Made by a program: the position numbers and the translations under genes
Source of the DNA: Escherichia phage VEc3
Sequence record: NC_047899.1
Reading direction: 5' to 3' (one strand)
Length of the DNA: 44,895 bases
The notes under the pieces: model-generated
What the model was told of the DNA's origin: nothing
The model's input: only the letters and a program-made list of their open reading frames with translations
Database searches by the model: none
Part shown: positions 2,460 to 38,695 of the stretch, piece by piece
Numbering within the stretch: position 1 is the first letter of the stretch
Layout of the letters: each line of letters begins with the position of its first letter

Positions 2460-3383
2460 ATGACTACTGAAAACACCCTTCTGTCTGTTCGTGAAGCTGC
2501 AACCGCTGAAATCAAGCAGCACTTAGACAATATCGGCACTTCTTACATCAAAGTTGGCGCTTGTCTGAATGAATTACGCGGTGATTTCGAAGGTCAAAAA
2601 GACTTTTTAGCTTATGTAGAATCAGAGTTCGGCATCAAGAAAGCACAATGCTACAAGCTGATGAGTGTAGCCCGTGTCTTTGAAGGAGACGAACGCTTTA
2701 AAGGTGTGGCTATGCGTGTAATGCTGGCGCTTGTTCCTTTCGCTGATGAAAATATAATCATGGAGAAGGCCGCAGAACTCGCCGCAGAGGGCAAGCTGGA
2801 CACTAACGCCGTAAACGCCCTGATTGATCCTAAGAAAGAGACAAAGGCCGAGACGGTACAATCTAAGGTTGAGTCGGTAAAACCGCAGGAGAACGCGACT
2901 GAGGCCGCAGAAACTATGCAAGGACATGCAACCTTTGAGGATTTCATATTAGAGAAGGCGAAAGAGGAGCTACAAAGTGTGCCGCCAGCAAGTGAGTCTG
3001 GTAACGACGAATCCGCACCGTGGGAAGACAAAAGCAAGCAGGAAGACACAAAGGCAGCGCCACGGGATAACACGGCTAACACCGAGAGTGCCGCTATTGC
3101 TGGCCTTCTGGCACAAATTAAAGCACTGACCGAGCAATTACAGGCAGCTAATGACCGCATTGCCTCCTTAAGCAGCGCACGCGAAAGCAAGAAAGCAGCC
3201 GCGCCTATGCTGCCGCAATTCAAATCTTCCTGCTTCTATGCTCGCTTAGGTTTAAGCGCTGAGGAGGCAACGAAGAAAACAGCAGTTAACAAGGCACGCC
3301 GCGAACTGGTTAAGCTAGGCTACGGCGAAGGCCATGAAGCATGGCCCTTAATCTCTGAGGCAGTAGAAGAATTAACTAAGTAA
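2460..3383 (+). CDS. Early protein (307 aa): conserved N-terminal domain, acidic low-complexity linker, coiled-coil, C-terminal domain
   Basis: Track ORF 2451-3383; ATG 2460 preferred (AAGG 8 nt upstream); occupies the slot of T7 gp0.7 but has no kinase motifs; N-terminal domain resembles a DUF3102-type phage domain (by recall). Confidence 0.7.
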   Translation: MTTENTLLSVREAATAEIKQHLDNIGTSYIKVGACLNELRGDFEGQKDFLAYVESEFGIKKAQCYKLMSVARVFEGDERFKGVAMRVMLALVPFADENIIMEKAAELAAEGKLDTNAVNALIDPKKETKAETVQSKVESVKPQENATEAAETMQGHATFEDFILEKAKEELQSVPPASESGNDESAPWEDKSKQEDTKAAPRDNTANTESAAIAGLLAQIKALTEQLQAANDRIASLSSARESKKAAAPMLPQFKSSCFYARLGLSAEEATKKTAVNKARRELVKLGYGEGHEAWPLISEAVEELTK

Positions 3384-3446: not shown

Positions 3447-6074
3447 ATGCAAGACCTACACGCTATTCAACTTCAACTTGAAGAAGAAATGTTTAACGGC
3501 GGTATCCGTCGCTTTGAAGCGGACCAACAACGCCAGATTGCATCCGGTAATGAATCAGACACGGCATGGAATCGCCGCTTATTGTCCGAGTTAATCGCGC
3601 CAATGGCTGAAGGCATTCAGGCATACAAGGAAGAGTATGAAGGTAAAAGAGGCCGTGCACCGCGTGCATTAGCTTTCATTAACTGCGTAGAAAACGAAGT
3701 GGCAGCATATATCACGATGAAAATCGTTATGGATATGCTGAACACGGATGTAACCTTGCAGGCTATAGCCATGAATGTAGCTGACCGCATTGAGGACCAA
3801 GTACGTTTTAGCAAGCTGGAAGGTCACGCCGCCAAATACTTTGAGAAAGTTAAGAAGTCACTTAAGGCAAGTAAGACTAAATCATATCGCCATGCGCACA
3901 ACGTAGCGGTCGTGGCTGAGAAGTCAGTAGCTGACCGTGACGCTGATTTCTCTCGCTGGGAGGCGTGGCCTAAAGATACCTTGCTACAAATTGGTATGAC
4001 CTTGCTAGAAATACTGGAAAATAGTGTATTCTTCAATGGTCAGCCTGTCTTTCTTCGCACCTTGCGCACTAATGGTGGCAAGCATGGCGTTTACTACTTA
4101 CAGACTAGCGAACACGTGGGTGAATGGATAACTGCATTTAAAGAGCACGTAGCTCAGCTGAGTCCAGCCTATGCGCCTTGCGTTATTCCTCCTCGTCCGT
4201 GGGTTTCTCCGTTTAATGGTGGCTTCCATACTGAGAAAGTAGCAAGCCGTATTCGTCTAGTAAAAGGCAATCGTGAGCACGTCCGCAAGCTGACCAAAAA
4301 GCAAATGCCAGCGGTTTACAAGGCTGTTAACGCTTTGCAGGCGACTAAGTGGCAGGTTAATAAAGAGGTTTTGCAGGTAGTAGAGGACGTTATTCATCTC
4401 GACCTTGGTTATGGTGTGCCTTCCTTTAAACCACTCATCGACCGTGAGAACAAGCCAGCTAATCCAGTGCCGTTAGAGTTCCAGCACCTGCGAGGCCGTG
4501 AATTGAAAGAGATGCTAACACCGGAGCAATGGCAGGCCTTCATCAACTGGAAGGGTGAATGTACTAAGCTGTATACCGCTGAGACTAAGCGCGGCAGCAA
4601 GTCGGCGGCGACCGTCCGCATGGTAGGACAGGCCCGTAAATACAGCCAGTTTGACGCTATTTATTTTGTATATGCACTGGATAGCCGTTCACGCGTTTAT
4701 GCGCAATCTAGCACGCTCTCGCCGCAATCAAACGACTTAGGCAAGGCATTGCTCCGTTTTACCGAAGGGCAGCGTCTTGATAGCGCTGAGGCGCTTAAGT
4801 GGTTTTTGGTGAACGGGGCGAATAACTGGGGTTGGGATAAGAAAACTTTTGACGTGCGCACCTCTAACGTGCTGGATGGCGAATTTCAAGACATGTGCCG
4901 CGACATTGCAGCCGATCCGCTGACCTTCACTCAATGGGTAAATGCTGATTCCCCTTACGGCTTCCTTGCATGGTGCTTTGAATATGCGCGTTATCTGGAT
5001 GCACTGGATGAAGGCACGCAAGACCAATTCATGACGCATCTACCCGTCCATCAAGACGGTAGTTGCTCTGGTATCCAGCACTATAGCGCGATGTTACGCG
5101 ATGAAGTAGGTGCGAAAGCAGTAAACCTTAAGCCTTCTGACTTCCCTCAAGATATTTATGGCGCAGTCGCGCAGGTTGTTATCCAGAAGAATTACGCCTA
5201 CATGAATGCAGACGATGCAGTGACTTTCACATCTGGAAGCGTCACACTTACAGGTGCAGAACTGCGTAGCATGGCTAGTGCGTGGGATATGATAGGAATC
5301 ACTCGCGGATTGACCAAAAAGCCCGTAATGACACTACCTTATGGCAGCACACGTCTAACCTGCCGTGAATCAGTGATTGATTATATCGTTGATTTGGAAG
5401 AAAAAGAGGCCCAACGAGCTATTGCGGAAGGGCGTACCGCCAATCCTGTACATCCTTTTGATAATGACCGTAAGGACAGCCTGACACCTAGTGCAGCTTA
5501 TAACTATATGACGGCTTTAATCTGGCCTTCTATTTCGGAAGTGGTTAAAGCTCCTATAGTGGCAATGAAAATGATTCGTCAGCTTGCCCGTTTCGCAGCT
5601 AAAAGGAATGAAGGCTTAGAGTATACCTTGCCTACTGGCTTCATCTTGCAACAAAAGATTATGGCTACCGACATGCTACGCGTATCCACTTGCTTGATGG
5701 GTGAAATCAAGATGAGTCTACAGATTGAGACTGATGTAGTGGATGAAACGGCTATGATGGGCGCTGCTGCTCCTAACTTTGTTCACGGGCATGATGCTAG
5801 TCATCTCATCCTGACTGTATGTGACCTCGTTGACAAGGGCATTACATCCATCGCAGTCATCCATGATTCTTTCGGTACTCACGCAGGCCGTACAGCCGAT
5901 CTACGTGATAGTCTAAGGGCAGAAATGGTGAAGATGTATCAAGGCCGTAATGCCCTGCAAAGCCTGTTAGATGAGCATGAAGAACGCTGGTTAGTAGACA
6001 CCGGAATCCAAGTGCCAGAGCAAGGAGAGTTTGACCTTAACGAAATCTTAGTATCTGACTATTGCTTCGCATAA
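3447..6074 (+). CDS. DNA-directed RNA polymerase, single-subunit, SP6-type
   Basis: 875 aa; begins [32 protein letters not shown] and contains [27 protein letters not shown] and IHDSFGTH motifs; ends ...DYCFA like T7-family RNAPs. Confidence 0.95.
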
Positions 6075-6082
6075 TATTAATA

Positions 6083-6116
6083 GGCCATTCCTTCGGGAGT
6101 GGCCTTTTCTTTTACC
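6083..6116 (+). terminator. Rho-independent terminator after the RNAP gene
   Basis: GGCCATTCC-TTCG-GGAGTGGCC stem-loop (UUCG tetraloop) followed by TTTTCTTTT. Confidence 0.7.
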
Positions 6117-6147
6117 TACTACCGGTAACATTTCATTAACATAAAGT

Positions 6148-6163
6148 GTCTCACATGTGAGAC
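6148..6163. repeat. 16-bp perfect palindrome GTCTCACATGTGAGAC (copy 1)
   Basis: Exact palindrome immediately upstream of the phage promoter at 6166. Confidence 0.8.
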
Positions 6164-6165
6164 TT

Positions 6166-6188
6166 ATTTACCGGACACTATAGGATAG
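6166..6188 (+). promoter_or_regulatory. Phage RNAP promoter (ATTTACCGGACACTATAGGATAG)
   Basis: Matches the ATTTACyGGACACTATAG core; predicted +1 G at 6183. Confidence 0.6.
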
Positions 6189-6329
6189 CCGTCGGAGACG
6201 GGAAAGAAAGGGAAGATAAAGGATATAAAAGGAAGTAATAGGTATTAAAGGCTATATAGGTTATCTAGGAATACCTATTACCTTCTTCCTTCCTCTTATT
6301 ACTACTTAGAGGAAGGGCAGATCTAGGTT

Positions 6330-6345
6330 GTCTCACATGTGAGAC
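6330..6345. repeat. 16-bp perfect palindrome GTCTCACATGTGAGAC (copy 2)
   Basis: Exact palindrome immediately upstream of the promoter at 6351. Confidence 0.8.
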
Positions 6346-6350
6346 TTCGT

Positions 6351-6373
6351 ATTTACCGGACAGTATAGATAAG
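6351..6373 (+). promoter_or_regulatory. Phage RNAP promoter variant (ATTTACCGGACAGTATAGATAAG)
   Basis: Consensus-like with C to G at -5; precedes the HNH gene. Confidence 0.5.
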
Positions 6374-6395
6374 ACTAACTTACTTTGGAGGTTAC

Positions 6396-6812
6396 ATGCG
6401 TAAATCATTAGCTCAAAGAGTAGAGCAAGCAGGTTATACTATACAAGACGACGGTACTATCAAAGGTAAGCGAGGTAACATCTTGAAACCTTGGCTTCAA
6501 TCTTCAGGTTATCCAGTTGTAAATATAGTATTCAAGAAAGGTACAAAGACAACTACCCTTGTGCATCGCATAATTGCTAGTAAGTATTGTCCTTGCTCTG
6601 ACCCGTTGGCTAATGATGTAAACCACAAAGACGGAATCAAGACTAATAATGCAGCTTCTAATCTTGAATGGATTACACGTAGGCAGAACCGTAATCACTA
6701 TTTAGGTTTTGAGGACTATATGACACTTACGGCAGAGGATGCCCGTAAGAAGAATAATGAGCGCACTATTGCTCGACGTAAATTACTTAAACAGTTGAAT
6801 AATAAGGACTAA
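6396..6812 (+). CDS. HNH homing endonuclease
   Basis: 138 aa; VNHKDGIKTNNAASNLEWITRRQNRNH motif; AT-rich relative to neighbours. Confidence 0.85.
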   Translation: MRKSLAQRVEQAGYTIQDDGTIKGKRGNILKPWLQSSGYPVVNIVFKKGTKTTTLVHRIIASKYCPCSDPLANDVNHKDGIKTNNAASNLEWITRRQNRNHYLGFEDYMTLTAEDARKKNNERTIARRKLLKQLNNKD

Positions 6813-6814
6813 TT

Positions 6815-6946
6815 ATGCGTACTAACTTCGAAAAGATGACCCGTAAAGCTAACCGTTTTGACATGGAAGAAGGGCAGAAGAAAGGCAAGAAGCTGAATGT
6901 ACCTGTCCGTGACCGTGCATCTAAACGCGCTGCGTGGGAGTTCTAA
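6815..6946 (+). CDS. gp1.1-like small basic protein (43 aa)
   Basis: MRTNFEKMTRKANRFDMEEGQKKGKKLNVPVRDRASKRAAWEF resembles recalled T7 gp1.1 (MRNFEKMTKRSNRNARDFEATKGRKLNKTKRDRSHKRSWEGQ); AAGGA RBS. Confidence 0.5.
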   Translation: MRTNFEKMTRKANRFDMEEGQKKGKKLNVPVRDRASKRAAWEF

Positions 6947-6949
6947 GTT

Positions 6950-8938
6950 ATGGCTATTATTCAGAATGTACCGTGTCCTGCCTGTCAAAAGAATGGACAT
7001 GATATTACTGGCAACCATCTTATGATATTTGAGGATGGCGCTGGTTACTGTAACCGTGGTCACTTCCATGATAACGGTAAACCTTATTACCACAAGCCGG
7101 AAGGTGGCATCGAGATAACCGAGTTACCTATTACTGGCAATATCAAATATACACCTTCTCAATTCAAAGAAATGGAGAAGGAAGGGAAGATAAGCGACCC
7201 TAAGCTACGCGCCATCGCACTTGGTGGTATGCGTATGAAAGACCGTTGGGAGGTTATGAATGAGCAAGAAAGGGCAGACCAAGAAGCAGAGTGGAAACTT
7301 GATGTTGAATGGTTCCTCACGCTTAAGCGTAAGAACCTTGTATCCCGTCACATTCGAGGTGACATCGCAGCAATGTACGATGTGCGCGTTGGACACGATG
7401 AAGAGGGAAGAGTCAACCGTCACTATTATCCACGATATGAAAAGGGTGTGCTTGTTGGAGCAAAATGCCGGACGTTGCCGAAGGATTTTAAGTTCGGACA
7501 CCTAGGTAAACTCTTTGGTATGCAAGATCTTTTCGGTATGAACACTTTGTCTCACGTGTTAGACAAGGGGAGACGAAAGGATTGCTTGCTTATTGTAGGC
7601 GGTGAACTTGATGCACTAGCAGCGCAGCAGATGCTCCTTGATTCTGCCAAGGGTACTAAGTGGGAAGGCCAGCCATACCATGTATGGTCTGTCAACAAAG
7701 GTGAGTCTTGCCTTGAAGAGATAGTGCAGAACCGTGAGCATATCGCCCAATTCAAGAAGATTATTTGGGGCTTTGATGGGGATGGGGTTGGGCAGAAGCA
7801 GAACCAGCAAGCGGCTCGCCTGTTTCCCGGCAAATCCTATATCCTTGAATATCCTTCTGGTTGCAAAGATGCCAACAAGGCATTGATGGCTGGCAAGGCT
7901 AAAGAATTTGTGGATGCTTGGTTTAATGCAAAGTCATCTGATGAAGTCTTTGGTAGCCAGATTAAATCTATCGCATCTCAAAGAGATAAGCTCAAGGCTG
8001 CACGTCCAGAACAAGGGCTGTCATGGCCTTGGCCTAAGCTAAACAAGGTAACACTGGGTATCCGTAAGAACCAGCTTATCATTATAGGTGCAGGCTCTGG
8101 TGTAGGTAAGACTGAGTTCCTCCGTGAAGTAGTTAAGCATCTCATTGAAGAACACGGTGAATCTGTAGGCATCATTTCTACAGAAGACCCGATGGTCAAG
8201 GTGTCCCGTGCTTTTATCGGTAAGTGGATTGATAAGCGTATTGAGTTACCTCCAACCAATGACCCGAAAGAAGACGGATACCGTGAGGTGTTCGACTACA
8301 CCGAGGAAGAAGCTAACGCCGCCATTGATTATGTAGCTGATACAGGTAAGCTGTTTGTAGCTGACCTAGAAGGTGACTATTCGATGGAGAAGGTAGAGCA
8401 AACTTGCCTAGAGTTTGAGGCCATGGGTATTTCTAATATCATCATTGATAACTTAACGGGGATTAAATTAGATGAGCGTGCTTTTGGTGGGAAGGTTGGT
8501 GCACTTGATGAATGCGTCAAGCGGATTGGTACTATCAAAGACAGACACCCAGTTACTATATTCCTTGTATCACACCTTACACGTCCTCCGGCAAACCGTA
8601 CCCAACACGAAGAAGGTGGCGAGGTTATCCTTTCTGACTTCCGAGGCTCAGGAGCTATCGGATTCTGGGCATCTTACGCCTTGGGGATTGAGCGTAATAC
8701 AAGAGCTGAAACGCTTGACGAAAGGACTACCACGTATATCTCATGTGTCAAAGATCGCGACCAAGGTATCTTCACCGGAACCAAGATTATGCTTAAGGGT
8801 GATATTCAAACCGGACGTTTGAGAGAACCACAGGCTAGAACAAGGTCATTTGATACAGGTGAAGCAAGGCAACAAGAAGTGCCGGATTTACCGGACACTA
8901 TAGAAGAGACAACTTTTGACGATGAACAGGAGTTTTAA
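6950..8938 (+). CDS. DNA primase/helicase (gp4-like)
   Basis: 662 aa; N-terminal Cys4 zinc ribbon (CPACQ...CNRGHFH); Walker A GAGSGVGKT; acidic C-terminus ending ...DDEQEF. Confidence 0.9.
   Translation: MAIIQNVPCPACQKNGHDITGNHLMIFEDGAGYCNRGHFHDNGKPYYHKPEGGIEITELPITGNIKYTPSQFKEMEKEGKISDPKLRAIALGGMRMKDRWEVMNEQERADQEAEWKLDVEWFLTLKRKNLVSRHIRGDIAAMYDVRVGHDEEGRVNRHYYPRYEKGVLVGAKCRTLPKDFKFGHLGKLFGMQDLFGMNTLSHVLDKGRRKDCLLIVGGELDALAAQQMLLDSAKGTKWEGQPYHVWSVNKGESCLEEIVQNREHIAQFKKIIWGFDGDGVGQKQNQQAARLFPGKSYILEYPSGCKDANKALMAGKAKEFVDAWFNAKSSDEVFGSQIKSIASQRDKLKAARPEQGLSWPWPKLNKVTLGIRKNQLIIIGAGSGVGKTEFLREVVKHLIEEHGESVGIISTEDPMVKVSRAFIGKWIDKRIELPPTNDPKEDGYREVFDYTEEEANAAIDYVADTGKLFVADLEGDYSMEKVEQTCLEFEAMGISNIIIDNLTGIKLDERAFGGKVGALDECVKRIGTIKDRHPVTIFLVSHLTRPPANRTQHEEGGEVILSDFRGSGAIGFWASYALGIERNTRAETLDERTTTYISCVKDRDQGIFTGTKIMLKGDIQTGRLREPQARTRSFDTGEARQQEVPDLPDTIEETTFDDEQEF
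8886..8908 (+). promoter_or_regulatory. Phage RNAP promoter embedded in the primase/helicase 3' coding sequence
   Basis: ATTTACCGGACACTATAGAAGAG, full consensus; +1 G at 8903; encodes ...DLPDTIEE... Confidence 0.65.
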
Positions 8939-10250: not shown

Positions 10251-10260
10251 GTCAAGGGTT

Positions 10261-10276
10261 GTCTCACGTGTGAGAC
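10261..10276. repeat. Palindrome variant GTCTCACGTGTGAGAC (copy 4)
   Basis: One central change; extended stem GGTTGTCTCAC/GTGAGACAGCC then TTTTAT. Confidence 0.7.
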
Positions 10277-10307
10277 AGCCTTTTATCATGTTGATTGGAG
10301 GTGCATT

Positions 10308-10415
10308 ATGCCACGTGATTATGATTCTGATTGGGACTATTATGACTCAATGAATCCAAAACCCGAACGTTCAGATGATTACTACGAAACAGAGGTAATG
10401 TATGAAGACTATTGA
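10308..10415 (+). CDS. Small acidic ORF (35 aa), hypothetical
   Basis: GGAGG RBS 6 nt upstream; overlaps DNAP start by 14 nt. Confidence 0.35.
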   Translation: MPRDYDSDWDYYDSMNPKPERSDDYYETEVMYEDY

Positions 10416-12948
10416 TTGGAAGAAGGAGGCAGAAGGTCGTATCCTCGTGATGGATGCGGAAGCTAAAGGACTCCTTGACGCTATCCGATATGGACACCGT
10501 GAAGATGTGCATATCATTTGCTGCATGGACTTGCTTACTACCGAGGAGTTTCTCTTCTTCGACCCGTATGAGATGCGTGACCCTGAAGCAAGAGAACGCC
10601 TGAAGGAATGGGAAGGTCATCAAGACGGAACCTTGGTTGATGGTGTTAACTTCCTGAAGCATTGTGAAGCTATTGTGTCACAGAACTTCCTAGGGTATGA
10701 CGGACTTCTCTTTGAGAAAGCATTCCCTGATATTTGGAAAGGCTTTAACTATACCGAGAAGCGCGGTAAGGGCAGACTCCGTGCTGACCTGTGCCCGGTG
10801 CGAGTCATGGATACGCTGGTGATGAGTCGCCTGTTAAACCCCGATAGACGCCTTCCTCCGCAAGCATATGCCAAAGGTATGGGTAACGTCGCCCCTCACT
10901 CAATTGAGGCGCACGGCATCCGTATAGGTCGCTATAAACCGGAGAACGAGGACTGGTCTAAACTAACTGACCACATGGTTCACCGTGTACGTGAGGACGT
11001 GGCGATTGGTCGTGACCTATTCCTCTGGCTATTTAACGGAGAATGGACGGAGCACAAACGCCGTGGCGTGAATAAACGCACTGGCCTAGGTATTGAGACA
11101 GCCTTCCACATGGAGTCCATTGTGGCGCTGGAGATGAGCCGTCAGGCCGAGCGCGGGTTCCGTCTGGACATCGACAAGGCTTTGGCCCGATGCGAAGAAT
11201 TGGACGCTAAGATTGATGAGACAGTCGCAGCGTTCCGCCCTCACATGCCTATGCGTATCAAGTCTAAACCTTTTAAACCGGAAGAAAAGAATGAAGTATG
11301 CCAACGCGCAAATGAGTATGGAGCTAGCAACAATATACCTACTGTCCTTGACCCCTCACACTTTCTTCATGCCGAGAGACGAGGAGATCGCAAGACAGTA
11401 TGGAGTGTCACTACTAAGTCTGGTGATTGGTCGGCTAGTGTCAAGAAAGACTTTCCTCACCTTAGAGGAAACCGTAATGACACGCCAAGCATCAAGTGGA
11501 TTGGCGCTTACTCGCCTGTTACTTTCGAAGAGATCCCCTTGGGTAACAGGGGTACAGTTAAGCAAGTGCTCTATGAGTATGGATGGAAAGGTGTTGAATT
11601 TAACGATACCGAGCAAGCTCATCTCGATGAGCACGGAGTGTTACCAAAACCTTGGAGTGGTAAGATAAATGAAAAGTCCCTCACTTTATGGCAAGAAAGA
11701 GCCGCACGTGAAGGTAAAACAGTCCCTGATTGGTGCTTGGGTATCGCTGCATGGTACATATTCGTATCCCGTCGTGGTCAGATACTCAACCGTGGTGACG
11801 TTGAAGCCTTCAACGAGAAGGGAACGTGGCCCTCGCAGGCTGGTGTACGAAAGTGTCGCGGCCTTGTACCTGTAGCATTCAACAAGGAGCTAGGAATCAA
11901 TGCGCAGCAATACTACGAGAGGTACGGATGTTGGCCTACGTCTGACAAAGATGACGGAGAGTGGCGTGTTCCAGCTGTTGCTATTAGTATTGGCACTTCT
12001 ACGTTCCGTATGCGTCATCGTAACGTGGTTAATATTCCTGCCCGTGGCTTGTATCCTTTACGTGATTTATTCATAGCAGGGAAAGGCAAGCTAATCCTTG
12101 GTTGTGACGGTGCAGGTCTTGAACTGCGTGTCCTGTCTCACTTCATGAATGACCCTGAGTACCAAGAGATTGTACTGCACGGTGATATTCATACGCATAA
12201 CCAGATGAAGGCTGGTCTTCCTAAGCGTGATATGGCGAAGACGTTTATATACGCCTTCCTCTATGGTTCTGGTATAGCCAACCTTGCAGCAGTCTGCGGT
12301 GTTACTGAGGAAGAAATGAAGGAAGTTGTGGCAAGATTCGAGATTGAACTACCGTCTCTTGCACGTCTTCGTGAGAATGTTATCGCACAAGGTAACAAGT
12401 TTGGCTACCTGCAAGCACCTGATGGGCATTGGGGTCGCATCCGCATGTCTGGTGGTGAACTTAAAGAGCACACGATGCTTAACGTATTACTCCAGATGAC
12501 TGGCTCTTTGTGTATGAAATATGCATTAGTCAAGGCATTTGCAGTAATGCGCAAGGAAGGTGTAGCTTTGGATGCTATGGGAAATCCTTGTGGTGTGGCT
12601 AACGTGCATGATGAAATCCAGATGGAAGTTCCTGAAGAGGAGGTCTTGTATCTTAACTACGACCTACCTTTCACCTTAGATGGGTTCGAAACAGAGAAGG
12701 CTGCTGTGAAAGCAGTTTTCGATGCAGAGGAGAAACGTGTTCATGTGGATTCTGAAGGACGTATGTGGTCTGCTGCAAACCTCGTTAGCGTTGATGCTGA
12801 TGCTGGTGTATTGCATTGCCAGCGCCGTTATCACCGTGCAGGTCATATCATTGCCGAAGCCATGACTTGGGCAGGGCAGTATCTGAAGATGCGTTGCCCG
12901 ATGGCAGGAGAATATAAGATTGGCGCAAGCTGGAAGGAAACACACTGA
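10402..12948 (+). CDS. DNA polymerase (family A, T7 gp5-like)
   Basis: 848 aa; exonuclease and polymerase blocks (GxDGAGLELRVLSHF, HGDIHTHNQ, KTFIYAFLYGSG, VHDEIQ). Confidence 0.93.
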   Translation: MKTIDWKKEAEGRILVMDAEAKGLLDAIRYGHREDVHIICCMDLLTTEEFLFFDPYEMRDPEARERLKEWEGHQDGTLVDGVNFLKHCEAIVSQNFLGYDGLLFEKAFPDIWKGFNYTEKRGKGRLRADLCPVRVMDTLVMSRLLNPDRRLPPQAYAKGMGNVAPHSIEAHGIRIGRYKPENEDWSKLTDHMVHRVREDVAIGRDLFLWLFNGEWTEHKRRGVNKRTGLGIETAFHMESIVALEMSRQAERGFRLDIDKALARCEELDAKIDETVAAFRPHMPMRIKSKPFKPEEKNEVCQRANEYGASNNIPTVLDPSHFLHAERRGDRKTVWSVTTKSGDWSASVKKDFPHLRGNRNDTPSIKWIGAYSPVTFEEIPLGNRGTVKQVLYEYGWKGVEFNDTEQAHLDEHGVLPKPWSGKINEKSLTLWQERAAREGKTVPDWCLGIAAWYIFVSRRGQILNRGDVEAFNEKGTWPSQAGVRKCRGLVPVAFNKELGINAQQYYERYGCWPTSDKDDGEWRVPAVAISIGTSTFRMRHRNVVNIPARGLYPLRDLFIAGKGKLILGCDGAGLELRVLSHFMNDPEYQEIVLHGDIHTHNQMKAGLPKRDMAKTFIYAFLYGSGIANLAAVCGVTEEEMKEVVARFEIELPSLARLRENVIAQGNKFGYLQAPDGHWGRIRMSGGELKEHTMLNVLLQMTGSLCMKYALVKAFAVMRKEGVALDAMGNPCGVANVHDEIQMEVPEEEVLYLNYDLPFTLDGFETEKAAVKAVFDAEEKRVHVDSEGRMWSAANLVSVDADAGVLHCQRRYHRAGHIIAEAMTWAGQYLKMRCPMAGEYKIGASWKETH

Positions 12949-15741: not shown

Positions 15742-16682
15742 TAGATGCTGATATGTTACCTTACATCGTAGGATGTACAATCAGTGACATGACTTATGTA
15801 CGAGCTACAACTCGTGTTAAGTCAGGACAAGTCCCATCAATCAAAGATACACCTGAGTGTAAGCAAGCGTGTGACCGTGTGAACTCCTTGCTCAACTCTT
15901 GGGTGTATGCAGCAGAGTGTGATGCAGCTAAATTATTCATGACGAAATCAGAAGCTAACTTCCGTGTTCGCCTAGCCTTCACCAAGCCTTATAAGGGTCA
16001 ACGTAAGACCGAGAAGCCTCCGTTCTTCTATGAATTGCGAGAGCATCTCTTAGAGGTTCATGGTGCAATCTTGGCAGATGGAGAAGAGGCTGATGACCTC
16101 ATGAGCATTGCACAATGGGACAGCCACCGCCGCTTCCAGCAAGATACAGGTAACGAGTTTCCTATCGGTAGTCCAGAGCATAAAGCATTCTCTGATACTT
16201 GCATCGTTTCCTTGGATAAGGATTTGATGATTGTTCCCGGTTGGCACCTTCAGCCGGGACAAGAGAAGAAATGGGTAGAGCCTATGGGTTGGCTTGAGTT
16301 ACGCCGTAAGGCTAATGGTCAGGTTAAAGACCTTAAAGGTGCTGGCCTCATGTTTCATTATGCACAGATGATTATCGGTGATGATATTGATAACTATGCT
16401 GGCATACCTGGACGTGGTGCTAAATACGCCTATGATCTTCTCAAAGATTGTAAGACAGAGAAAGAGTTGTACATGGCAGTGCTTGGTGCTTACAAGGCTA
16501 AGTTCGGACATGGACAAGTTAAGATTAAGAATTACCGAGGTGGTTATCGTATCGGCAAGGCTTTTGACCTGATGCTCGAATGTGGTCGCCTAGCTCACAT
16601 GGCAAGATTCAAAGGTGATATATGGCGAGCCGATAAGAACCCAATCTTGTGGGGAGATGATGCGGAATGGTTAGCAAATTAA
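15654..16682 (+). CDS. 5'-3' exonuclease (gp6-like, FEN family)
   Basis: 342 aa from ATG 15654 (AGGAG RBS); acidic active-site blocks IALIDADML, ADGEEADDLM, LDKDLMIV, GDDIDNYAGIPG; track ORF 15588 is an N-terminal over-extension. Confidence 0.8.
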   Translation: MRPNFDFGATVSEDNNLILWPTEGNRIALIDADMLPYIVGCTISDMTYVRATTRVKSGQVPSIKDTPECKQACDRVNSLLNSWVYAAECDAAKLFMTKSEANFRVRLAFTKPYKGQRKTEKPPFFYELREHLLEVHGAILADGEEADDLMSIAQWDSHRRFQQDTGNEFPIGSPEHKAFSDTCIVSLDKDLMIVPGWHLQPGQEKKWVEPMGWLELRRKANGQVKDLKGAGLMFHYAQMIIGDDIDNYAGIPGRGAKYAYDLLKDCKTEKELYMAVLGAYKAKFGHGQVKIKNYRGGYRIGKAFDLMLECGRLAHMARFKGDIWRADKNPILWGDDAEWLAN

Positions 16683-17077
16683 AATCATCGGAGGTAGCAG
16701 CTTATAAGAGGGAATTACTAGAGAAGCAAGGATGGAAGTGCCCCCTATGTGGCGGCAGTCTCAAGGCTGTTACTCCTATAAACCGTGTACTTGACCATGA
16801 CCATGAGACAGGATTCTGCCGTGCTGTTGTATGCCGAGGTTGCAATGGTGCAGAAGGAAAGATTAAGGGTGTTATCTCTGGTTATGGTAAGGCTGGTAAC
16901 AACCGTTACTTCCAGCTTCAATGGTTAGAGCGACTATATGAATACTGGAAGTTACATAGTACGCCTCAGACAGATAAGTTATATCACAAACATCAAACGG
17001 AGGCAGAGAAGCGCGAGGCTAAGAACCGTAAGGCACGCCTTGCTTATGCAAGAAAGAAGGAGGTTAAAGTTGGGTAA
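16667..17077 (+). CDS. Endonuclease VII-like Holliday junction resolvase
   Basis: 136 aa; CPLCG...DHDH...CRGCN zinc-binding pattern as in T4 endonuclease VII. Confidence 0.75.
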   Translation: MVSKLKSSEVAAYKRELLEKQGWKCPLCGGSLKAVTPINRVLDHDHETGFCRAVVCRGCNGAEGKIKGVISGYGKAGNNRYFQLQWLERLYEYWKLHSTPQTDKLYHKHQTEAEKREAKNRKARLAYARKKEVKVG

Positions 17078-36366: not shown

Positions 36367-36810
36367 ATGCATAGATGGTGTGAATCTCAAGGTTATACCA
36401 TCTTACCTTCTGGTGTCATCCTTTCAAAGGGTGGCACCCCTCTCAAACCATTCAAGGCGGGTAGGGGTTATTTAGCAGTTAAAATTAAAAATAAAGAAGG
36501 TAAATGGCGTAATGTCTATGTTCATCAATTAGTGGCTTATAAGTATTTACCTAAAACTAATAATGAAGTAAACCACAAAGACGGCGATAAGCACAACAAT
36601 GATGTTAGCAACTTGGAGTGGGTAACAAGAAGCGAGAATAACTATTTAAAATGCAATGGAAATGATAGGAGTGCCTTAAATAGCTATTTAGCAAGATTAA
36701 AAGATTGCTTCTTGCAAGGTAAGGGTGTAGCAGAAACCGCTAGACTTACTGGTAAAAGTGAACCAAGAGTTTCTTCTCTCTTTAAGGAGTGGCGAAATGG
36801 CAAAGGCTAG
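36367..36810 (+). CDS. HNH homing endonuclease inserted between the terminase genes
   Basis: 147 aa; VNHKDGDKHNNDVSNLEWVTRSENN motif; strongly AT-rich; paralogous in design to the HNH at 6396. Confidence 0.85.
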   Translation: MHRWCESQGYTILPSGVILSKGGTPLKPFKAGRGYLAVKIKNKEGKWRNVYVHQLVAYKYLPKTNNEVNHKDGDKHNNDVSNLEWVTRSENNYLKCNGNDRSALNSYLARLKDCFLQGKGVAETARLTGKSEPRVSSLFKEWRNGKG

Positions 36811-38695
36811 AGAATCACAGGCAGAGGCATTAAAGCGGTGGGAAAACCTTAAAGAACTACAAGACACTTTTAAATATACAGCGGAAGGTTTGCTTCTCTT
36901 TGCAGATACAGTTATTCATAACTTAATTGCAGGCAACCCTCATCTGATTCGTATGCAGGCGGATATCTTGAAGTTCCTATTTTACGGACACAAGTACCGC
37001 CTCATCGAAGCGCCTCGTGGTATCGCTAAGACAACACTATCAGCAATCTATACGGTATTCCGTATTATTCATGAACCGCATAAGCGTATCATGGTTGTGT
37101 CCCAAAACGCCAAGCGAGCAGAGGAAATCGCAGGTTGGGTAGTTAAAATCTTCCGTGGCTTAGACTTTCTTGAGTTTATGCTGCCGGATATCTACGCTGG
37201 GGACCGTGCATCCGTTAAGGCGTTTGAGATTCATTACACCCTACGTGGTAGTGATAAGTCTCCTTCTGTATCCTGTTACTCAATCGAAGCAGGTATGCAG
37301 GGTGCTCGTGCTGATATTATTCTAGCGGATGACGTAGAGTCGATGCAGAATGCTCGTACGGCAGCGGGCCGTGCCTTGCTTGAGGAACTGACTAAGGAGT
37401 TTGAATCTATCAACCAGTTTGGGGATATCATTTACCTTGGTACACCTCAGAACGTAAACTCTATCTACAACAACCTACCTGCTCGTGGTTACTCTGTTCG
37501 TATCTGGACTGCGCGTTACCCTTCAGTAGAGCAAGAGCAATGTTATGGCGACTTCCTTGCACCTATGATTGTTCAAGATATGAAGGACAACCCAGCACTT
37601 CGCTCAGGGTACGGGTTGGATGGTAATAGTGGTGCACCTTGTGCCCCTGAAATGTATGATGATGAAGTCCTGATTGAGAAGGAAATCTCTCAGGGTGCTG
37701 CTAAGTTCCAGCTTCAGTTCATGCTTAACACTCGCATGATGGATGCTGACAGATACCCATTACGCCTGAACAATCTAATCTTCACCTCGTTTGGTACAGA
37801 GGAAGTCCCTGTGATGCCTACGTGGAGTAATGATTCCATAAACATCATTGGTGATGCACCTAAGTACGGTAACAAGCCTACGGATTTCATGTACAGACCT
37901 GTAGCTCGCCCATACGAATGGGGTGCTGTCTCCCGCAAGATTATGTATATTGACCCTGCGGGTGGTGGTAAGAACGGAGATGAGACGGGTGTAGCCATCG
38001 TATTCCTGCACGGCACATTCATTTATGTGTATCAGTGCTTTGGTGTACCTGGCGGATACCGAGAGTCGTCCCTGAATCGCATTGTGCAGGCCGCAAAGCA
38101 GGCGGGTGTTAAAGAGGTATTCATTGAGAAGAACTTTGGTCATGGCGCGTTTGAGGCGGTAATTAAGCCGTACTTTGAACGAGAGTGGCCTGTAACTCTG
38201 GAAGAAGATTACGCCACCGGACAGAAAGAATTGCGTATCATTGAGACGCTGGAGCCGCTCATGGCAGCCCATAGGCTTATCTTCAATGCAGAGATGGTGA
38301 AGTCAGACTTTGAGTCGGTACAGCACTATCCGCTTGAACTACGCATGTCCTACAGTCTTTTCAATCAAATGTCGAACATAACGATTGAGAAGAACAGCCT
38401 ACGGCACGATGACCGCCTAGACGCCCTGTATGGTGCTATACGGCAATTAACTTCTCAGATAGACTATGACGAGGTTACACGGATTAATCGCCTCAGAGCG
38501 CAGGAGATGCGAGATTACATCCATGCTATGAACACACCTCATCTACGCAGGGCAATGCTATATGGGGATTACGGTACTGAGCGAAGAGTGACCAACACTT
38601 CCGTAGCGATGCAGCAGCGAGTTTACGGGCAGAGCTACCGAAATAAATCGGCAAGCAGAAATACACTTTCTGCAAGGATTTCAAGGACTTATTAA
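36797..38695 (+). CDS. Terminase large subunit (gp19-like)
   Basis: Walker A-like GIAKTT, YLGTPQ, FMLN, HDDRLDAL blocks as in T7 gp19; ATG 36797 with AAGGAG RBS preferred over track start 36758. Confidence 0.92.
   Translation: MAKARESQAEALKRWENLKELQDTFKYTAEGLLLFADTVIHNLIAGNPHLIRMQADILKFLFYGHKYRLIEAPRGIAKTTLSAIYTVFRIIHEPHKRIMVVSQNAKRAEEIAGWVVKIFRGLDFLEFMLPDIYAGDRASVKAFEIHYTLRGSDKSPSVSCYSIEAGMQGARADIILADDVESMQNARTAAGRALLEELTKEFESINQFGDIIYLGTPQNVNSIYNNLPARGYSVRIWTARYPSVEQEQCYGDFLAPMIVQDMKDNPALRSGYGLDGNSGAPCAPEMYDDEVLIEKEISQGAAKFQLQFMLNTRMMDADRYPLRLNNLIFTSFGTEEVPVMPTWSNDSINIIGDAPKYGNKPTDFMYRPVARPYEWGAVSRKIMYIDPAGGGKNGDETGVAIVFLHGTFIYVYQCFGVPGGYRESSLNRIVQAAKQAGVKEVFIEKNFGHGAFEAVIKPYFEREWPVTLEEDYATGQKELRIIETLEPLMAAHRLIFNAEMVKSDFESVQHYPLELRMSYSLFNQMSNITIEKNSLRHDDRLDALYGAIRQLTSQIDYDEVTRINRLRAQEMRDYIHAMNTPHLRRAMLYGDYGTERRVTNTSVAMQQRVYGQSYRNKSASRNTLSARISRTY

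Follow-up and report, generated by a model that had tools for sequence, protein, structure and literature searches.

The genome of Escherichia phage VEc3 (NC_047899.1), analysed here as a whole stretch of 44,895 nucleotides (the window), carries a small HNH gene between its RNA polymerase and primase genes, and the question raised by this locus is whether the gene serves the phage or is a mobile element that copies itself into one defined site of related genomes. The phage is an SP6-like podophage of the genus Vectrevirus (K1E/K1-5 group), and the window spans all or nearly all of its genome; the nearest GenBank records, vB_Ec-G9, LF31P3 and PhiNW-E1, share 93–95% identity with the window over 87–91% of its length. 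The neighbourhood of the gene is organised as follows.

3447..6074, upstream of the HNH ORF: single-subunit RNA polymerase (RNAP) gene (RNA_pol, E=4.5e-89)
6082..6105, + strand: terminator-like hairpin with T-run behind the RNAP gene, bounding the intergenic region on its upstream side
6167..6183, + strand: first promoter of the RNAP–HNH spacer, motif TTTACCGGACA[C/G]TATAG
6352..6368, + strand: second spacer promoter, SP6/K1E-type, TTTACCGGACAGTATAG, motif TTTACCGGACA[C/G]TATAG
6387..6391, + strand: Shine–Dalgarno GGAGG of the HNH gene (sequence and alignment of relatives)
6396..6812, + strand: HNH ORF, ATG start, 138 aa (ORF list, profiles and model)
6815..6946, + strand: gp1.1-like gene (K1E gp8 / SP6 gp9), 43 aa (Phage_1_1, E=2.8e-14)
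6950..8938, downstream of the HNH ORF and the gp1.1-like gene: primase/helicase gene

The initial annotation had placed a 138-aa HNH gene between the RNAP gene and the gp1.1-like and primase genes, and the ORF at 6396..6812 agrees with it exactly. This is not a chance ORF, since 68–99% amino acid identity is kept in other phages with a dN/dS of 0.05–0.2.

By profile match and predicted fold, the product belongs to the HNH nucleases, in the lineage of the homing endonuclease I-HmuI. Residues 55–99 match Pfam HNH_3 (E=2.6e-8, 33.8 bits, cut-off 24.8), and the full length matches PHROG 959, 'HNH endonuclease' (profile length 138, E=4.6e-34). The sole real match of phmmer against the PDB is I-HmuI (1U3E, E=3.3e-10), in which residues 13–122 are aligned to residues 12–120. 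An AlphaFold2 (AF2) model generated from 61 homologues (pLDDT 94.6, pTM 0.82) gives 1u3e_M as the only significant Foldseek match in the PDB (E=1.9e-8, TMq 0.62, 29% identity). The modelled order comprises an N-terminal helix, a NUMOD4-like β domain (residues ~14–55), the HNH ββα core (residues 74–102) and a basic C-terminal helix (residues 113–136), and the succession of an I-HmuI-like DNA-binding β domain and an HNH core is present in both the sequence and the fold alignment to 1U3E, which extend over residues 13–122. In the core, N76, H77, N89 and N98 correspond to D74, H75, N87 and N96 of I-HmuI. H77 and N89 do not vary among the 61 homologues, and conservation of N76 and N98 reaches at least 90%; Asn76, situated where I-HmuI has Asp74, is the norm of this family. 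In the I-HmuI structure of 2004, Shen et al. reportedly assigned a catalytic His (general base), a structural Asn and a metal-binding Asn/His. An NCBIfam match to ZorE, far below threshold (16.5 bits against 600), was disregarded as the common HNH motif.

I-HmuI, from Bacillus phage SPO1, shares with the 138-aa protein the N-terminal β domain followed by the HNH ββα-metal core and the 'H-N-N' form of the motif (H77, N89 and N98 here), and the group of I-HmuI, I-HmuII, I-BasI, I-TwoI and I-PfoP3I is likewise phage-borne. [quoted passage not shown] A C-terminal helix-turn-helix or NUMOD1-type module is absent from the protein, and the match to I-HmuI ends at residue ~120 of 174. Pfam NUMOD4, detected in most homologues, was not detected in the 138-aa protein. 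The wider family contains 1713 proteins at E<=1e-8, mostly NUMOD4+HNH_3 proteins of 177–400 aa with additional C-terminal DNA-binding modules. Since it ends at one long basic helix without a helix-turn-helix domain, the 138-aa protein can be described as a minimal member of the I-HmuI lineage. A homologue of 141 aa with 54% identity and the same short architecture lies at 3001–3426 of L019, a region of a 51-kb contig (SRR20950965), in an unrelated neighbourhood with neither RNAP nor primase nearby, so the short HNH subfamily also occupies other sites in other phages.

The segment that distinguishes carriers from empty-site relatives is slightly larger than the ORF and brings its own signals for the downstream gene.

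6401..6822, + strand: 422-bp segment absent from empty-site relatives (alignments)
6804..6808, + strand: AAGGA, replacement ribosome-binding site of gp8 (the gp1.1-like gene), carried by the insert (sequence)
6820–6822, + strand: extra Thr codon of gp8, giving MRTNF instead of MRNF (alignments)

The empty site reads GGAGATTTAACCATGCG(Y)AACTT. In the alignment of empty sites (K1-5, K1E, ACG-C91, LF31P3 and SP6) it appears as ...CTTTGGAGATTTAACC-ATGCG(Y)AACTTYGAR..., and the filled site appears as ...CTTTGGAGGTTAC-ATGCGTAAATCA...[HNH]...AATAAGGACTAATT-ATGCGTACTAACTTC... The boundaries of the insert are ambiguous by a few bases, because the 7-bp ATGCGTA is located at both ends (6396–6402 and 6815–6821). 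The insert is situated at the very start of gp8 and captures the gp8 promoter, ribosome-binding site and start-codon context (ATGCGTA...). The HNH ORF starts 28 nt past the predicted +1 of the promoter at 6352–6368 and forms the first ORF of the predicted transcript, and the equivalent of this promoter drives gp8 directly in empty-site genomes. G6391, in the Shine–Dalgarno GGAGG, is found only in HNH-carrying genomes, and the empty sites have GGAGA. The displaced gp8 gains from the insert a new ATGCGTA start and the AAGGA at 6804–6808, which lies inside the last HNH codons, 6 nt before the gp8 ATG, and is kept in all aligned carriers.

The extra Thr codon is present in every carrier with an ATGCGTA gp8 start (the window, PhiNW-E1, G9, L012–L017, UAB_Phi78 and L018) and absent from all SP6-like and T7-like empty-site genomes examined, which all have MRNF. 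PM93 is a carrier with a more divergent gp8 start (ATGAGAAAT) and without the Thr codon. On sequence grounds, this codon is a candidate target-immunity change that would protect carriers from their own enzyme. The first ~30 nt of the gp1.1-like gene, ATGCGYAACTTYGARAAGATG, are unusually conserved and are common even to T7-like phages.

The initial annotation had called for a synteny comparison with related phages and had named universal presence at this site as evidence against a selfish element; the comparison showed that, at one site, the stretch is cleanly present in some genomes and absent from others. Megablast of positions 5500–8000 returned 100 related phage records, 40 of which were listed, and exactly the HNH stretch is absent from 36 of these 40, as seen from the two or three aligned pieces that cover 83% of the query. 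The query is covered to 100%, among the 40 listed, only by PhiNW-E1, UAB_Phi78 (two records) and pSL2; G9, whose record is permuted at the HNH site, is also a carrier. Exact absence was observed in K1-5, K1E, ACG-C91, LF31P3 and SP6, and in 12 IMG/VR SP6-like contigs. These contigs came from an IMG/VR scan for the two gp8-start variants, in which the sole SP6-like carrier was UAB_Phi78; matches to the Thr-containing start on several further contigs of 16–90 kb were set aside, as they fell in unrelated genes that lack homology to RNAP, HNH or primase. About a dozen scattered SP6-like genomes from three genera carry the gene at the identical site, against at least 17 distinct empty-site SP6-like genomes and most of the listed GenBank records. 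The Vectrevirus carriers have amino acid identities of 97.8% (PhiNW-E1), 96.4% (G9) and 99% (metagenome contigs L012–L015); the Zindervirus carriers, 90% (UAB_Phi78 and pSL2) and 83% (L016); and the Acadevirus (Proteus) carriers PM93 and PM116, 71%.

Element and flanks have different histories, as seen in synonymous divergence, flank identity to an empty genome and base composition. Between the window and the other Vectrevirus carriers, the dS of the HNH gene is 0–0.08, and for these pairs of genomes the neighbouring RNAP gene gives 0.23–0.53. The nearest matches to the insert flanks belong to HNH-less genomes. In particular, the HNH-less IMG/VR contig L035 has no substitution relative to the window over 5661–6390, the 730 bp upstream of the insert, and over 6813–7074 differs only at the junction bases, at 6839 and at 6899–6900; its empty site is canonical, with no deletion scar. 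From this flank match, the window corresponds to a backbone like that of L035 to which the insert has been added, the conversion tract spanning just a few bases. No long co-conversion tract common to the carriers was found, and divergence climbs again within ~100–300 bp on each side. The GC content of the HNH gene is 38.6%, compared with 45.0% for the genome and 46–48% for the neighbouring genes, placing it in the lowest 5% of 417-bp windows. The gene thus looks recently acquired by the window phage through horizontal spread, as far as comparison of genomes can tell, although the low local divergence could also reflect ordinary recombination instead of endonuclease-driven conversion, since the genomes of these phages are mosaic everywhere. 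Of the differences from L035, the one at 6899–6900 is a double substitution private to the window (GT for AA) in the gp1.1-like gene, which changes a conserved Lys to Val and gives LNVPVRD where all aligned relatives have LNKPVRD.

Across genera, the HNH dS rises to 1.3–2.0, similar to the primase dS of 1.6–1.9, and the element is therefore old in SP6-like phages; part of its distribution could be due to vertical descent and loss. The HNH dN/dS is about 0.05 for the window against UAB_Phi78 and L016, indicating that the protein is kept functional under purifying selection across genera. Two same-site copies are broken: the copy at 3001–3416 of L017 (GCA_903974605.1) has lost 1 nt directly behind the HKDG motif, and that at 3001–3430 of L018 has two frameshifts. 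Either these copies are decaying homing endonuclease genes (HEGs) or they contain assembly errors; degenerate copies are expected from the invasion–decay cycle of HEGs, with assembly errors a possible source.

Taken with the fold and the site polymorphism, these data make it very probable that 6396..6812 is a free-standing HEG of the I-HmuI-like HNH lineage. When a carrier and an HNH-less SP6-like phage infect one cell, the enzyme would be made early or mid-infection from the promoter at 6352–6368, and would nick or cut the allele without the insert close to the conserved start region of gp8 (...GGAGATTTAACCATGCGYAACTTYGARAAGATG...). The break would then be repaired by recombination with the HNH-carrying genome, by which the 422-bp insert would be copied into the recipient, and co-conversion would reach only a very short way. 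Protection of the carrier genomes would probably come from the insert, which splits the site and adds the in-frame gp8 Thr codon. Characterised I-HmuI-type enzymes are site-specific nickases (PMC3428280), and for one of them, the 161-aa I-PfoP3I, a 14-bp site suffices (PMC3428280). The analogy with I-HmuI, I-HmuII, I-BasI, I-TwoI and I-PfoP3I favours a strand-specific nickase with a short site (about 14–25 bp) over a double-strand cutter.

A more specific form of this reading, advanced tentatively and rather doubtful at present, is a 'start-codon-capturing' HEG, whose target would be the conserved gp1.1-like start ATGCGYAACTTYGARAAGATG and whose immunity would reside in the co-inherited Thr codon. 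In that case, an enzyme of 138 aa with no helix-turn-helix domain would recognise a site that several Autographiviridae genera have kept, the extra gp8 codon would be an uncommon trace of HEG–target co-evolution, legible straight from the sequence, and such a HEG might bias recombination in therapeutic K1-phage cocktails.

The strong purifying selection could also be explained by a domesticated, beneficial nuclease, kept, for example, for degrading or excluding co-infecting relatives (marker exclusion) or for acting on host or satellite DNA, and not for copying itself. The cross-genus dN/dS of ~0.05 is comparable to that of the primase, the HNH gene is the first ORF after an early/middle promoter, and HEGs have been reported at genetic-exchange boundaries near essential genes (PMC10448857), all of which would suit such a role. 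However, the gene occurs in a small minority of very close relatives infecting the same hosts, and frameshifted copies exist, making this explanation unlikely. Moreover, cutting the empty allele of a competitor is the same event as homing, and the two accounts differ in emphasis more than in mechanism.

The frameshifted copies are equally relevant to an inactive relic, in which a HEG in decay would have lost its DNA-cutting ability and be carried along passively. Such a relic would be in keeping with these pseudogenised copies in relatives and with a minimal protein without the C-terminal DNA-binding module of most family members (177–400 aa). In the window, however, the reading frame and the catalytic residues are intact, the dN/dS is well below 1, and a dS of 0–0.08 on divergent backbones indicates recent spread; the short architecture, meanwhile, is that of the whole PHROG family 959 (profile length 138). 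A relic is therefore quite improbable, and a functional HEG remains the preferred reading.

The spacer upstream of the gene contains several repeated elements. The promoter motif TTTACCGGACA[C/G]TATAG has 13 sites in the window, all on the + strand, compared with 0.09 expected. A 16-bp perfect palindrome, GTCTCACATGTGAGAC, has eight copies with <=2 mismatches in the window, compared with 0.01 expected (16 bp each, at 633, 6148, 6330, 7549, 9117, 10261, 14894 and 31561). The copies at 6148 and 6330 are located a few bases upstream of the two spacer promoters, and the SP6 and UAB_Phi78 equivalents of the spacer palindromes are GTCTAACGTGTTGGAC. The palindrome could be an RNA processing hairpin, a terminator-like hairpin or a protein-binding site. 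Between the promoters, at 6190–6330, a purine-rich tract GGAAAGAAAGGGAAGATAAAGG is followed by its approximate inverted complement CCTATTACCTTCTTCCTTCC; this inverted repeat is kept in K1E, K1-5 and ACG-C91, and PhiNW-E1 has a 10-bp duplication inside it. The initial annotation had called the spacer promoters putative origin promoters, and the inverted repeat at 6190–6330 may be the replication origin that it named. A replication accessory role, in which a nickase would help to start DNA replication at the adjacent promoter-flanked putative origin (6148–6345), would fit the position of the gene immediately downstream of the two promoters with their palindromes and inverted repeat and the nickase activity of the relatives of the enzyme, yet it is scarcely credible and was rejected on position and dispensability, as the same intergenic region is present without the HNH gene in most relatives and the gene thus cannot be needed for replication. 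We know of no HNH_3 enzyme with such a role.

A packaging role was also rejected on position and dispensability. In cos phages, HNH proteins of the HK97 gp74 type accompany terminase and portal as conserved partners. The gene studied here resembles them in being phage-encoded with an HNH motif, but some 30 kb separate it from the terminase genes and most relatives do without it; the HNH gene at the terminase locus of the window, described below, is itself I-HmuI-like and polymorphic.

Among known free-standing elements, the HNH and GIY-YIG HEGs of T4-like phages (MobA–E and SegA–G) are close in behaviour: they stand alone between conserved genes and are sporadic among close relatives. They are reported to spread by cutting the HEG-less allele, with co-conversion of the flanks (PMC2790892, PMC2988022), and the window HNH gene likewise appears to spread by cutting the HEG-less allele. 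In contrast to the T4-like HEGs, the window element resides in an SP6-like member of the Autographiviridae, its inferred co-conversion tract is only a few bases, and it takes over both promoter and start codon from the gene downstream. The kind of element is already known, in that orthologues are annotated in GenBank as 'HNH (homing) endonuclease': UAB78_013 of UAB_Phi78 ('HNH homing endonuclease', 90% amino acid identity), EcG9_050 of vB_Ec-G9 ('HNH endonuclease', 96%) and gp09 of Proteus phage PM93 ('HNH endonuclease', 71%) are the same gene at the same site, each as an annotation only. No experimental or comparative study of these orthologues was found in the literature searched, and no specific description of the HNH element was found in the literature on SP6, K1-5, K1E and UAB_Phi78; the only HEG discussed in one report is that of UAB_Phi87 (PMC4837284), and in another a homing endonuclease is merely listed among variable genes (PMC5582158).

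The element offers a clean, well-bounded example of a free-standing HNH HEG in SP6-like (Molineuxvirinae) phages, and its broader significance is small; the start-codon capture and the linked Thr codon are modestly interesting details. Assays of homing or nicking can readily be designed, given a defined empty site, near-isogenic empty partners (L035 and LF31P3) and a polymorphism that is a candidate for immunity. Therapy cocktails make use of Vectrevirus (K1E/K1-5-like) phages, and when members of a cocktail infect the same cell, HEGs can skew how recombination between them turns out. In addition, the minimal 138-aa architecture could interest engineers of small sequence-specific nickases.

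The window contains a further HNH gene.

36367..36810, + strand: second HNH_3 gene, 147 aa, GC 38.1% (HNH_3, E=2.6e-11)

Flanked by the genes for the two terminase subunits, small and large, this gene shares an overlap with the beginning of the large subunit ORF. LF31P3 and G9 lack it, whereas PhiNW-E1, 101101UKE1, KMB47 and AAPEc6 have it; judged from its sequence and distribution, it is another polymorphic I-HmuI-like HEG. The two HNH genes of the window are paralogues with 47% identity over 90 aa. The initial annotation had noted that they differ in sequence and had suggested independent acquisitions; the difference holds, each gene is polymorphic on its own, and this identity together with the independent presence and absence makes independent acquisition reasonable. 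The description of the RNAP–primase interval as a known hotspot for selfish endonuclease insertions holds for SP6-like phages as far as the hotspot itself is concerned, since further HNH inserts occur in this interval of relatives, but such a statement was not found in the literature.

Several other HNH genes were observed in the relatives. At 3555–4043 of both L012 and L014, a different NUMOD4+HNH_3 gene of 162 aa is located between gp8 and the primase gene. In L013 (3773–5800) and L015 (1598–3627), the primase/helicase gene is in two ORFs, split by a 166-aa HNH_3(+HTH) gene, and the interruption may be an intron or a split gene. K1E and L013 have a 72-aa gp8.5 in the RNAP–primase interval; gp8.5 of K1E was considered as a remnant of the 162-aa HNH gene at the gp8–primase junction and rejected, as no similarity was found (E=1.4). 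In vB_Ec-G9 (L011), two more HNH genes are annotated, at 10260..10715 after endonuclease VII and at 37155..37616 after the tailspike genes, and the window (16667..17077) apparently has none at these sites, so Vectrevirus genomes vary in their whole HNH gene complement.
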